Origin: Escherichia phage vB_EcoP_SU10
Direction: 5' to 3' (one strand)
Sequence record: NC_027395.1
DNA: 64,000 bases
In this document: positions 3,743 to 9,034 of the stretch, piece by piece
Layout of the letters: every line of letters starts with the position of its first letter
How positions within the stretch are numbered: the stretch's first letter is position 1
Made by a program: the position numbers and the translations under genes
Notes under the pieces: model-generated
The model's database searches: none
Told to the model about the DNA's origin: nothing
Seen by the model: only the letters and a program-made list of their open reading frames with translations

Positions 3743-5986
3743 ATGGCTAAGCAAAAATATAGTGAAGAGGTGTTGGACGAGTTACGTGTTGACCTTCAAC
3801 GTCGTTTTAATTATGCTCAAGGCTACGTGGACATGGCTGTTAAGGGCTATGCTCGTGAAGCTTGGGAATATTTCTATGGTAACTTACCTGCACCAGTAAC
3901 TGCTGGCAGCTCTAGTTGGGTAGATCGTACTGTTTGGGAATCTGTTAACGGTACATTGCAAGATATTATTAACGTATTCTGTTCTGGTGATGAAGCAGTT
4001 ACTTTCGTAGCTGACAACCAACAGGATTCTGATGCTGCTGATGTAGCAACTAAATTAGTTAACCAAATTCTTCTGCGTGACAATCCGGGATACAATATTA
4101 TCTCTTCTGCTGCACAAGAATGTCTGGTTACTCGTAACTCTTTTATCAAGTATTATTGGGATGAACAAACTTCTACTCAAACTGAAGAAGCTGAAGGTGT
4201 ACCACCGGAAGCATTGGCTGCATATGTTCAGGGATTAGAAGCTGGTGGACTCAAGAATCTGGAAGTCTTCACTGAAGAAAATGAAGACGGTACAGTCGAT
4301 GTTAAAGTTACTTACGAACAAACTGTTAAACGTGTGAAAGTTGAATATGTTCCTTCAGAGCAAATCTTTGTTGATGAACATGCTACCTCTTTTGCAGATG
4401 CACAATACTTCTGTCATCGTGTACGTCGTTCTAAAGAAGATCTGGTTGCTATGGGCTTCCCTAAAGATGAGATTGAAGCATTCAACGACTGGACAGACAC
4501 GATGGATACCACTCAATCTACGGTTGCTTGGTCTCGTACTGACTGGCGTCAGGATATTGATGCTGATATTGGTACAGATACCGAAGATATCGCTTCTATG
4601 GTTTGGGTTTATGAGCACTATATTCGTACTGGTGTTCTAGATAAGAATAAAGAGTCTAAACTCTATCAGGTTATTCAAGCTGGTGAGCATATCCTTCACA
4701 CTGAAGAAGTAACTCACATTCCGTTTGTAACCTTCTGTCCGTATCCGATTCCGGGTTCCTTCTATGGTCAATCGGTCTATGACATTACGAAAGATATTCA
4801 AGATTTACGTACCGCGTTAGTTCGTGGTTATATTGATAACGTCAACAATGCTAACTATGGTCGATACAAAGCTCTTGTTGGTGCATACGACCGTCGCTCT
4901 CTGCTTGATAACCGTCCCGGTGGAGTGGTTGAAATGGAACGTCAGGACGCTATTGACCTGTTCCCATACCATAACCTACCTCAAGGTATTGACGGCCTTC
5001 TAGGCATGTCTGAGGAGCTTAAAGAGACACGTACCGGTGTAACCAAACTAGGCATGGGTATCAACCCTGATGTGTTTAAGAATGATAACGCTTATGCAAC
5101 CGTAGGCTTGATGATGAATGCTGCACAGAACCGCCTCCGTATGGTATGTCGTAACATTGCTCACAACGGTATGGTTGAACTGATGCGTGGTATTTACAAT
5201 CTTATCAGAGAAAATGGTGAAGTTCCTATTGAGGTACAAACCCCTCGTGGTATGATTCAGGTAAATCCGAAACAATTACCAGCTCGTCACAATCTTCAAG
5301 TTGTTGTAGCTATCTCTCCTAATGAGAAAGCAGAACGTGCACAGAAACTGATTAGCTTGAAACAGCTGATTGCAGCAGATGCACAGTTAGCACCTCTCTT
5401 TGGTTTGGAGCAAGACCGTTACATGACTGCACAGATCTTTGAGTTGATGGGTATTAAAGATACACATAAATACCTTCTGCCTCTGGAACAGTATCAGCCT
5501 CCAGAACCTTCTCCGATGGAAATCCTCCAGCTCGAGATGACTAAAGCTCAGGTTGAGAACGTACAGGCTTCTTCTCAGAAGATGATTGCTGATGCATTCG
5601 ACCAACGTGAACGTACTACATTCGAACAGCAGAAAGCTGCGGATGAATTAAGTCTGCGTCAGGAAGAGTTGCAGTTCAAGCAAGAAAATGCAGCAGATGC
5701 AATGACTCTGGAAAACCGTAAAGAAGATAACAATGCTACTCTGGAACAAGCTAAGCACAAGTTAGCTCTTATGCAACAGCAGGTCCGTCAGTATGAATCT
5801 GTACTGAAAGAATTGCAGATGGTTATGTCTCATCAGGTAGACCAAGAGAAGATTGTTCAGCAAGCTCGTGTTCAGGACAAAACTTTGGAACTCCAAAAGA
5901 AAGAAGCTAATGTAACTAAGAAAGAGCAACAAGCTTCTCTCAAAGATTCACGGATTCCAGGCAAACGTCTTGGAAGTAAAAAGTAA
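3743..5986 (+). CDS. portal protein (747 aa)
   Basis: Size, position directly after terL, and a long charged coiled-coil C-terminus. GGGAGAG SD. Confidence 0.8.
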   Translation: MAKQKYSEEVLDELRVDLQRRFNYAQGYVDMAVKGYAREAWEYFYGNLPAPVTAGSSSWVDRTVWESVNGTLQDIINVFCSGDEAVTFVADNQQDSDAADVATKLVNQILLRDNPGYNIISSAAQECLVTRNSFIKYYWDEQTSTQTEEAEGVPPEALAAYVQGLEAGGLKNLEVFTEENEDGTVDVKVTYEQTVKRVKVEYVPSEQIFVDEHATSFADAQYFCHRVRRSKEDLVAMGFPKDEIEAFNDWTDTMDTTQSTVAWSRTDWRQDIDADIGTDTEDIASMVWVYEHYIRTGVLDKNKESKLYQVIQAGEHILHTEEVTHIPFVTFCPYPIPGSFYGQSVYDITKDIQDLRTALVRGYIDNVNNANYGRYKALVGAYDRRSLLDNRPGGVVEMERQDAIDLFPYHNLPQGIDGLLGMSEELKETRTGVTKLGMGINPDVFKNDNAYATVGLMMNAAQNRLRMVCRNIAHNGMVELMRGIYNLIRENGEVPIEVQTPRGMIQVNPKQLPARHNLQVVVAISPNEKAERAQKLISLKQLIAADAQLAPLFGLEQDRYMTAQIFELMGIKDTHKYLLPLEQYQPPEPSPMEILQLEMTKAQVENVQASSQKMIADAFDQRERTTFEQQKAADELSLRQEELQFKQENAADAMTLENRKEDNNATLEQAKHKLALMQQQVRQYESVLKELQMVMSHQVDQEKIVQQARVQDKTLELQKKEANVTKKEQQASLKDSRIPGKRLGSKK

Positions 5987-7349: not shown

Positions 7350-8408
7350 ATGGCTAATCCAACTTTATTTGTATCGTATGACCAGAATGGTAAAAAACTT
7401 TCTTTTGCTAACTGGATTTCTGTTCTGTCCCCTCAGGATACTCCGTTCGTATCTATGACCGGTAAAGAGTCTATCAACCAGACTATCTTTAGCTGGCAGA
7501 CCGATGCACTGGCAAGCGTTGACGGTAATAACGCACACGTCGAAGGCTCTCGTGCTGAAGACGGTGAAATGAAACCGACTGTTATCAAATCTAACGTTAC
7601 TCAGATTCTGCGTAAGGTTGTTCGTGTTTCTGATACTGCTAACACCACCGCTAACTACGGTCGTGGTCGTGAACTGATGTATCAGCTGGAGAAGAAAGGT
7701 AAAGAGATCAAGCGTGACCTCGAGAAAATCCTTCTGTCCGGTCAGGCTCGTACCGATGTTCTGGCTGACCAGTATCTGACTAACTCCGCAGCTGATCCTG
7801 CTGTTGCTGGTCTGAATGACACCCATGCAGCTCGTAAGACTGGTGCATTCCAGTTCCTGTGTGCTCACGGTGGTCTGGCTGGTGGCGTTGTTGACAAGAC
7901 CAAGAATGGTCCTGCTGACCCGGATACTGGTGCAGTAACTGTTAAAGTTGCACAGAATGCTTCTAACCCGACCACTAACATCGGTTTTGATGAAGCTGAT
8001 ATCTTTGATATGACTCTGCAACTGTACACCGCTGGTTCTGAAGCAGATATCATCATGATTAACCCGGCTCATGCTAAGATCTTCGCTGGTCTGCAAGAAA
8101 ATACTCAGGGTTCACGTAAGCGTATCTTTGAGAACACCAAGCAGTTCATCTACGAAGTTAACAGCATCACTGACCCGCTGGGCCAGAGCTACAAAATCAT
8201 CGTTAACCGTTGGATGCCTACCGATGCAGTTTACTTCTTCCGTAGCGCTGACTGGACTCAGATGGTTCTGCGTGCTCCGAAACGTACTGAACTGGCTAAA
8301 GACGGTTCTTACGAGAAGTGGATGATTGAAATGGAAGTTGGTCTGCGTCACCGCAACCCGTATGCTTCTGGCGTACTGTTCACTGCTGCGGGAAAGGCGG
8401 CGGCGTAA
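7350..8408 (+). CDS. major capsid protein (352 aa)
   Basis: Strongly biased high-expression codon usage, position after the scaffold, size typical of an HK97-fold capsid protein, and a strong terminator downstream at 8941. Confidence 0.85.
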   Translation: MANPTLFVSYDQNGKKLSFANWISVLSPQDTPFVSMTGKESINQTIFSWQTDALASVDGNNAHVEGSRAEDGEMKPTVIKSNVTQILRKVVRVSDTANTTANYGRGRELMYQLEKKGKEIKRDLEKILLSGQARTDVLADQYLTNSAADPAVAGLNDTHAARKTGAFQFLCAHGGLAGGVVDKTKNGPADPDTGAVTVKVAQNASNPTTNIGFDEADIFDMTLQLYTAGSEADIIMINPAHAKIFAGLQENTQGSRKRIFENTKQFIYEVNSITDPLGQSYKIIVNRWMPTDAVYFFRSADWTQMVLRAPKRTELAKDGSYEKWMIEMEVGLRHRNPYASGVLFTAAGKAAA

Positions 8409-8430
8409 CAGTAGACACTGTCTACTGTTA
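8390..8430 (+). promoter_or_regulatory. candidate translational recoding cassette: in-frame slippery heptamer G_GGA_AAG (8390-8396), 9-nt spacer, 11-bp stem with 3-nt loop (8406-8430)
   Basis: Capsid-frame codons are GCG GGA AAG. The hairpin is TAACAGTAGAC-act-GTCTACTGTTA. Its 5' arm contains the capsid stop TAA (8406-8408) and a second in-frame TAG (8412-8414). Confidence 0.6.
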
Positions 8431-8933
8431 GCCCTGCGTCTTTAGCAAGCCTAGAGACAGGGGCTACTCGGCAGTTCACTGCAAGCGCGGAGAAAAGTGA
8501 TGGTTCTACCGAAACAACTGGCTTTACTTGGTCAGTGACAGGAGGTGGTTCTATCACTCAGTCGGGTTTGTATACTGCTCCGAGTGCGTCTCAATCCACT
8601 GATGTATCCATTACTGCAACTTTAGAAGGTGTTTCTGGTACAGCAATCATTTCTGAAATTGTTGCTCCTGCTCCTACTATTGTAGCTAAGGGTCCAATTA
8701 CGGGTAAAACTGGTGGTTCTTCCACTAACTTCACTACCATGTTTACTGTAACTAATTCTACTGCTGCGGATTACACGTTTGTTGTAACCCCTACAGAAGC
8801 TGGTACAGTAAGCGCAGCTGGTGCGTTAACCTTAGATGCTGCTGCAAGTGGCGAAGTTACTGTTCAAGCAAGTTTGACAGCTGATCCGTCCATCAATGCA
8901 ACATGCACTTTTACTGGTGTAACACCTGCTTAA
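8415..8933 (+). CDS. Ig-like (Big_2-type) two-domain ORF in the capsid frame, lacking its own start codon; probable recoded capsid extension or decoration protein
   Basis: The frame is open from the codon after TAG 8412-8414. The translation TLSTVSPASLASLETGATRQFTASAEKSDGSTETTGFTWSVTGGGSITQSGLYTAP is a canonical Big_2 start. No ATG, GTG or TTG occurs in frame before GTG 8535, which falls mid-domain and has no SD. Confidence 0.6.
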   Translation, partial: TLSTVSPASLASLETGATRQFTASAEKSDGSTETTGFTWSVTGGGSITQSGLYTAPSASQSTDVSITATLEGVSGTAIISEIVAPAPTIVAKGPITGKTGGSSTNFTTMFTVTNSTAADYTFVVTPTEAGTVSAAGALTLDAAASGEVTVQASLTADPSINATCTFTGVTPA

Positions 8934-8940
8934 AACTAGA

Positions 8941-8965
8941 CCCTGCCTTCGGGCGGGGTTTTTTC
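8941..8965 (+). terminator. strong rho-independent terminator after the capsid module
   Basis: CCCTGCC-ttcg-GGCGGGG followed by TTTTTT. Confidence 0.85.
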
Positions 8966-8992
8966 GTTTTAAGACCTATACAAGCAAGTGTG

Positions 8993-9001
8993 TAATGTAT
9001 A
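8993..9001 (+). promoter_or_regulatory. TAATGTATA motif (candidate phage-sigma -10-like promoter element)
   Basis: Exact 9-mer, intergenic, between the terminator and the ATG at 9035 (33 nt leader). The same 9-mer recurs at 25627, 36306 (+), 36234 (-) and 43026 (-). Confidence 0.55.
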
Positions 9002-9034
9002 TTCTTTGTCTACATATAACAAGGAGGACAACCT

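Follow-up and report, generated by a model that had tools for sequence, protein, structure and literature searches.

The region behind the major capsid protein gene of Escherichia phage vB_EcoP_SU10 (SU10) is best described as a disabled member of the Kuravirus capsid frameshift cassette. Our reading, to which we assign a probability of roughly 80%, is that this conserved -1 frameshift cassette was disabled in SU10 by one template switch and that the long form of the capsid protein was lost. The analysis was carried out on a window of 64,000 nt (sequence record NC_027395.1), i.e. the whole stretch of DNA that was considered, and all positions refer to it. The window can be identified as SU10, a Kuravirus, since the coordinates of the slippery heptamer agree with those in the SU10 genome paper (2014), which noted a 'potential ribosomal slippage (GGGAAAG)' in coding sequence 9 (CDS9), nt 8,390-8,396. 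The premature -1 stop of SU10 and the loss of the isoform have already been published (PMC9965538), and the same is true of the Kuravirus capsid frameshift as such. What is added here, as judged from sequence comparison, is a probable mutational mechanism of the loss, namely a template switch at the frameshift hairpin.

The capsid protein of SU10 (gp9) matches the Pfam family SU10_MCP with an E-value of 1e-76 and is assigned by PHROG as a major head protein, and the capsid region is 98-99% identical to that of the phiEco32-group Kuraviruses. The 3' end of the gene reads GCG GGA AAG GCG GCG GCG TAA, which means that the heptamer GGGAAAG stands in the zero-frame register X_XXY_YYZ of a -1 slippery site. 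The capsid stop TAA (8406-8408) is followed by a further stop in frame 0, TAG at 8412-8414. A downstream structure is also present: its core stem begins 9 nt past the heptamer, and the fold of 8397-8445 has an energy of -26.5 kcal/mol (z = -6.2), with none of 200 shuffled sequences equally stable. The stability of the hairpin is thus far above chance expectation. What the window lacks is a substantial -1 extension, i.e. the -1 frame entered at the heptamer terminates at TAG 8429-8431 after 11 codons. Shifts of -2 or +1 at the heptamer were rejected from the sequence, the +1 frame being closed at TAG 8442-8444.

The ends of the capsid genes were examined in 27 related loci. All 17 Kuravirus-like loci and both Privateervirus loci carry GGGAAAG in register, with the capsid stop following at a distance of 6-21 nt, and in each of these 19 heptamer-bearing relatives the -1 frame runs into immunoglobulin (Ig)-like domains for 169-503 codons, as compared with the 11 codons of the window. 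In phiEco32, ShigP1 and Bas91 the hairpin is one base shorter in the alignment (ACAGTGT-GACTG, as opposed to ACACTGTCTACTG in the window), and the -1 frame continues from the heptamer as ...AAGK-GGGVTVDSVTVSPASLASLETGATRQFT.... A search with the junction gave the same picture: the matching stretch measures 100 nt in all of the 60 relatives listed and 101 nt in the window, to which none of them is identical. The arrangement seen in SU10, i.e. a start-less Ig-like open reading frame (ORF) in the same frame as the capsid gene and behind a stop that lies in a hairpin, was found in none of the relatives examined.

The capsid frameshift has been described for Privateer and YF01, where it was likened to 10A/10B of T7 (PMC9965538 among the sources), and for phiEco32 it is described through citing papers, including the SU10 genome paper. 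The Privateer record contains a joined CDS with the remark 'frameshift from major capsid protein; verified via mass spectrometry'. In comparison with these systems (gp11/gp12 of phiEco32, gp8 of YF01, the major and minor capsid proteins of Privateer) the window shares the gene, the GGGAAAG heptamer and its register, as well as the position of the hairpin, a homologous Ig-like extension and the terminator. It differs in that the -1 frame ends after 11 codons through an insertion of 1 nt, and no long isoform can be produced by the mechanism of the family. As regards annotation, nearly all Kuravirus records give the Ig-like ORF as a separate gene that starts from a GTG in the hairpin loop (L001 2571 and equivalents). 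A joined frameshift CDS is annotated only in the Privateer record, and ShigP1 names both ORFs 'major head protein'.

Differences private to the window were scored over 7350-9034 (1,685 nt) against 8 close relatives. There are five of them, and three of the five are found inside 6 nt within the hairpin. Over the junction (8382-8465), this cluster is all that separates the window from phage 4E8. The cluster inverts the spacer (AGT to ACT), homogenises the arms and adds 1 nt. If the left arm and loop of the ancestor are reverse-complemented (TAACAGTAGACAGT to ACTGTCTACTGTTA) and put in place of its loop and right arm, the exact sequence of the window is obtained. In other words, the ancestral repeat is imperfect, the derived allele is a reverse complement and the spacer is inverted, as in quasi-palindrome template switches. 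Homogenised arms and an inverted spacer are given as the outcome of template switching between imperfect inverted repeats in two papers (PMC8604942, PMC7202029). Since one template switch reproduces the cluster exactly, the three changes can be regarded as a single event. Moreover, private substitutions are absent from 8441-8933, and the lesion is therefore likely to be recent. The remaining private differences, at 8369 and 8375, are synonymous third-position changes in the capsid gene (TCT/TCC and GTA/GTT/GTC) located within about 50 nt upstream of the mutated hairpin.

The cluster has several consequences. The perfect palindrome of SU10 derives from an imperfect 7-bp stem with a 10-nt loop, the energy of the core hairpin changes from -4.5 kcal/mol in the ancestral form to -12.9 kcal/mol in SU10, and the ancestral extended stem-loop folds at -18.1 kcal/mol as compared with the value of SU10 given above. 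At the same time the -1 frame is shut at TAG 8429, the Ig-like ORF is moved to frame 0 behind two stops, and the GTG used by annotators as the start of gp12 in the relatives is destroyed. The same-frame, start-less and stop-in-hairpin features are thus three aspects of one lesion. As the layout is a by-product of one private event, it cannot be an evolved recoding device. An alignment of relatives, which a preliminary description of the region (made from the sequence of SU10 alone) had proposed as a check, found the heptamer conserved and the stem conserved without covariation, and found the perfect in-frame hairpin to be private to SU10. The consensus structure of 14 pairs is retained in 11 relatives with no compensatory double changes, a covariation test that is uninformative here because the region is dual-coding.

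Template switches of this kind are known from quasi-palindrome hotspots of E. coli, where clustered changes likewise turn an imperfect repeat into a perfect one and match the other arm and the spacer in reverse complement. The SU10 case differs in its target, the RNA hairpin of a frameshift signal, and in its effect, the loss of a recoded isoform; it also differs in that the event was deduced by comparison and not observed.

The Ig-like character of the downstream ORF (the 'gp10' of SU10) is supported by several lines of evidence. The ORF matches the PHROG 'Ig domain containing protein' with an E-value of 8.5e-81. The Pfam family Big_2 is matched at 21.0 bits, which is below the cut-off of 22.8, and the match falls on the second domain; all seven aligned homologues match Big_2 with E-values of 0.01 or better, the best being 5.3e-9. 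In searches of a profile of the homologues against solved structures (PDB), residues 2-76 matched an Ig-type domain of teneurin-like proteins (E = 2.6e-6) and residues 84-169 matched the Ig-like C-terminal domain of T5 pb6 (E = 0.007). An AlphaFold2 model from the single sequence is all-beta and consists of two blocks, with a predicted local distance difference test (pLDDT) of 54.5 that is too weak for a fold search. In the Ig-like part, synonymous changes predominate among the codon differences that set the window apart from its closest relatives (e.g. 6:2, 9:3 and 3:1), which indicates that it is a real coding region in the family. The earliest ATG, GTG or TTG in this frame is the GTG at 8535 (ORF 8535..8933), and no Shine-Dalgarno-like sequence was found upstream of either CTG 8418 or GTG 8535.

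The sequence features that the preliminary description had read directly from the DNA are all borne out, at the positions it gave (Table 1): the heptamer in the -1 slippery register, common to 19 relatives, the TAA and the second in-frame TAG, the 11-bp stem with a 3-nt loop 9 nt after the heptamer, the inability of one -1 shift to join both ORFs, the want of a canonical start before GTG 8535 or of a Shine-Dalgarno sequence, and the terminator after the Ig-like ORF. Its 'textbook Big_2' domain is Ig-like indeed, but 'textbook' overstates a match that is below threshold and confined to the second domain. As regards the terminator, the 4E8 record annotates one at the equivalent place, and the SU10 genome paper (2014) places one between CDS10 and CDS11.

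Table 1. Positions of the capsid gene end, the frameshift signal and the downstream elements in the SU10 window
Feature	Position	Strand	Basis and remarks
Major capsid protein gene, SU10 gp9, 352 aa, zero frame	7350..8408	+	ORF list
Slippery heptamer G_GGA_AAG for -1 programmed ribosomal frameshifting	8390..8396	+	Read from sequence
Residual -1 frame extension, 11 codons GGGVTVDTVYC, then TAG	8396..8431	+	Sequence; predicted trans-frame product 360 aa
Extended stem-loop, putative frameshift stimulator; lower stem GCGG.GGC / GCC.CUGC	8397..8437	+	Folding
Perfect 25-nt palindrome TAACAGTAGAC-ACT-GTCTACTGTTA, 11-bp arms, loop ACT	8406..8430	+	Holds the capsid TAA and the second frame-0 TAG
Orphaned two-domain Ig-like ORF, SU10 'gp10', frame 0 behind TAA and TAG	8415..8933	+	ORF list, Pfam, PHROG, profile searches
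Private mutation cluster 8418 G>C, 8422 +C, 8423 G>T	8418..8423	+	Comparison with 8 close relatives
Intrinsic terminator closing the capsid/Ig transcription unit	8938..8971	+	Stem 8938-8961 plus T run

The following course of events would account for these observations. In the relatives some of the ribosomes slip into the -1 frame shortly before they reach the capsid stop, and the protein they make carries at its C-terminus an Ig-like extension of about 178 aa or more. The outcome is a minor, longer form of the capsid protein, comparable to 10A/10B of T7. In SU10, a template switch during replication at the quasi-palindromic hairpin would have replaced the right arm with a reverse-complement copy of the left arm and the loop. 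Ribosomes would presumably still slip at GGGAAAG, but the result would be only a capsid variant of 360 aa ending in ...GKGGGVTVDTVYC (short -1 product ...FTAAGKGGGVTVDTVYC), and the stronger hairpin may raise the fraction that slips. The Ig-like ORF would be a very recent, still intact and untranslated remnant.

The published work on SU10 virions agrees with this in part. The cryo-electron microscopy (cryo-EM) study of 2022 found no density for minor capsid proteins, modelled the capsid protein to residue 349 of 352, and lists ORF10 (Ig-like domain) in its Supplementary Table 1 as 'in virion: no; detected by MS: no', where MS stands for mass spectrometry. In 2023 it was reported that SU10 has a TAG 39 nt past the heptamer in the -1 frame, and that the extended isoform is prematurely terminated, a loss unique to SU10 within the group (PMC9965538). 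With respect to the trans-frame protein of SU10 the literature is at odds, an MS claim of 2014 standing against the 'not detected' of 2022; for Privateer the result is positive.

Several points weigh against the loss of the isoform as we describe it. The 2014 paper lists a 55.4-kDa '9+10' species by MS, with 50.29% coverage and 22 peptides, which was taken as support for a fusion. Candidate fusions of 524-527 aa fit 55.4 kDa, and the coverage and peptide numbers fit neither the case with Ig peptides nor the case without them cleanly, i.e. these numbers do not decide the origin of the entry. The MS of 2022 was made from major gel bands only; a rare isoform could escape it, and flexible Ig-like domains of low occupancy can vanish from averaged maps. 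Slippage at the heptamer of SU10 is presumed to go on, and a gain in its efficiency from the perfected hairpin is likewise presumed. Finally, the hairpin is a putative stimulator by virtue of its position and conservation, without covariation.

Of the other explanations, the one that survives best, and which we still hold to be improbable, is an artefact or a mixed stock. According to this explanation the ancestral allele is carried by the actual SU10, or by some of the phage in the 2014 stock, and an ordinary -1 capsid-Ig fusion is made from it; the deposited consensus would then be an error or reflect a single subpopulation. Hairpins can provoke template-switch artefacts of the library or the polymerase. 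The SU10 allele was seen nowhere else, as neither exact nor degenerate patterns gave a match in viral_contigs and metagenome_contigs (0 matches, the metagenome scans being without a positive control), and the 55.4-kDa form would find a simple explanation. However, the SU10 genome was assembled with Newbler from 454 reads at 978x coverage, and two substitutions plus an insertion that is not a homopolymer-length error are unlikely to arise as a consensus error under these conditions. Independent work on SU10 in 2022 found neither an Ig-like protein by MS nor density for one. Moreover, the '9+10' entry can be matched by peptides shared with gp9: the Ig-like part gives only three or four usable tryptic peptides (among them QFTASAEK, TLSTVSPASLASLETGATR and GPITGK), gp9 alone had 78.1% coverage and 23 peptides in the same table, and a hypothetical fusion entry in a search database gets 'identified' through such shared peptides.

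It is very unlikely, in our judgement, that the Ig-like ORF is translated independently, from CTG 8418 or GTG 8535, as a free decoration protein or as a non-structural one. The annotators of SU10 did call a CDS10 of 132 aa from GTG 8535, and the cryo-EM authors considered that gp10 may be weakly bound or may function otherwise. Yet neither codon is accompanied by a Shine-Dalgarno-like sequence, CTG 8418 is buried in the hairpin of -26.5 kcal/mol, and a start at GTG 8535, which lies inside the first Ig domain, would give a truncated product. In the relatives the Ig-like ORF is a -1 continuation of the capsid gene and not a separate gene, and in SU10 it was not detected by MS.

Still less credit can be given to an unconventional recoding that joins the capsid and the Ig-like protein, be it a hop from GCG 8403 to GCG 8436, a readthrough of both stops, or a -1 shift that is undone by a subsequent +1 shift. 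What speaks for it is the geometry, which recalls the bypassing of T4 gene 60: the take-off codon is followed by a strong hairpin whose 5' arm holds a stop, and the same codon returns in frame 5 nt beyond that hairpin. In gene 60, too, the take-off and landing codons match, and the stop that adjoins the take-off codon is part of a hairpin, in its 5' arm; GCG 8403, GCG 8436 and the TAA of SU10 thus have their counterparts there. The Ig-like ORF is intact, and the '9+10' entry of 2014 is compatible with a fusion; the predicted junction peptide of a GCG-to-GCG hop is ...FTAAGKAAA-SLASLETGATR (...AAGKAAASLASLETGATR). However, the gap measures 30 nt in SU10 and 50 nt in gene 60, and SU10 has no Shine-Dalgarno-like element ahead of the landing codon (no GAG or GGAG in 8409-8435); nor is a nascent-peptide signal evident, though sequence alone would not reveal one. 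The elements are not conserved either: SU10 alone has the perfect hairpin and the Ig-like ORF in frame with the capsid gene, the Ig-like ORF of the relatives is in the -1 frame, and no product of the SU10 layout was detected. A by-product of a private mutation that is absent from all relatives examined has not been shaped by selection.

The preliminary description had drawn attention to the pair GCG 8403-8405 and GCG 8436-8438. The pair is present, but it is unremarkable, since 13 of the 64 ORFs of at least 100 aa in the window (20%) have their last sense codon once more, in frame, at 4-15 codons past the stop, and both GCGs are ordinary conserved codons in the relatives, where they stand in different frames. 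A +1 return shift before 8429 was rejected from the sequence, as no shift-prone +1 site is found between 8415 and 8428; the consecutive TAA and TAG make readthrough negligible; and ORF10 was undetected in SU10 virions. The weakest candidate is that the perfected hairpin, with the stop in its 5' arm, and the matching GCG just past it by accident allow some low-level bypassing or sliding, through which capsid and Ig would again be joined in frame 0; we give it hardly any credence, and if true it would explain the 55.4-kDa '9+10' species of 2014 and would mean that a gene 60-like hop can arise in one mutational step from a -1 frameshift stimulator.

What remains of the recoding proposed in the preliminary description is that the heptamer is a real -1 site and that the Ig-like ORF was historically a trans-frame extension of the capsid protein; the new mechanism does not stand. 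A fusion or decoration protein made by hopping, tandem shifts, readthrough or re-initiation is not supported, given the private nature of the layout and the failure to detect the Ig-like ORF in virions. Nor is the architecture one that cannot be assigned to a described case, as had been thought, given the published accounts of the Kuravirus frameshift and of the premature stop in SU10 (PMC9965538).

The likeness to genes 10A/10B of T7 and T3, which is cited by the Kuravirus papers, lies in a minor longer protein, which is made when ribosomes shift to -1 towards the 3' end of the gene for the major capsid protein. There is no sequence relationship between the T7/T3 genes and the SU10 cassette. 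The slip site and the extension of T7 differ from those of the Kuravirus cassette, and 10B of T7 has no Ig-like domain; this long form is dispensable in T7. An Ig-like domain is ascribed to the extension of T3 (PMC9965538).

The relatives also show variability of their own in this region. Among the close Kuravirus-like phages the -1 capsid extension comprises 178 to 503 codons, the longer ones (264, 370, 455 and 503 codons) being found in Bas88 (L020), Bas87 (L023), E20-1 (L024) and Ptacy1479 (L025), and this variation in length implies a modular gain and loss of Ig-type repeats. In the Lahexavirus-type relatives (L009-L012 from IMG/VR, and Aeromonas phage LAh_6, L018; locus ~3861-4430) an Ig-like ORF (..GVTVSPATNNLAVGGTRQLTATV..) is also found in the -1 frame; its open stretch begins 61 nt ahead of the capsid stop and reaches 89-170 codons past it. 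The end of the capsid gene (..CTG AAG GTA AAG GCG TAA) has no X_XXY_YYZ heptamer in these phages, which suggests the use of a non-canonical slip site. LAh_6 labels part of the Ig-like ORF 'putative tail protein'.

A different arrangement is seen in Salmonella phage 7-11 (L017, 1982-4758) and Cronobacter phage GAP52 (L019, 2992-5129), which have tandem pairs of capsid paralogues. In 7-11 the extension is joined to the capsid protein in the same reading frame, which gives a gp009 of 585 aa. The long capsid form has come about here by gene duplication and not by frameshifting. In IME267 (L022, 3183-3695) an HNH endonuclease gene is found between the terminator region of the Ig-like ORF and the adaptor gene, an insertion that is absent from the window and from the other close relatives. 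We note that MZ417522.1 (24,953 bp), deposited as 'Mycolicibacterium phage J1', is 95% identical to the capsid junction of E. coli Kuraviruses and is probably a mislabelled or contaminated record.

For the scanning of genomes, the case implies that a recoding-like oddity in a single genome needs a comparison with close relatives before a new mechanism is proposed. The analysis also explains why the fusion claimed from the sequence in 2014 and the cryo-EM and MS results of 2022 disagree, leaving aside the origin of the '9+10' MS entry. SU10 serves as a structural reference for the Kuraviruses, and its smooth capsid is probably due to a strain-specific loss of the Ig isoform and does not represent the state of the genus. 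Since a template switch at such a hairpin would have silenced the isoform of SU10, frameshift hairpins can be seen as fragile sites at which one event may switch off a recoded isoform.

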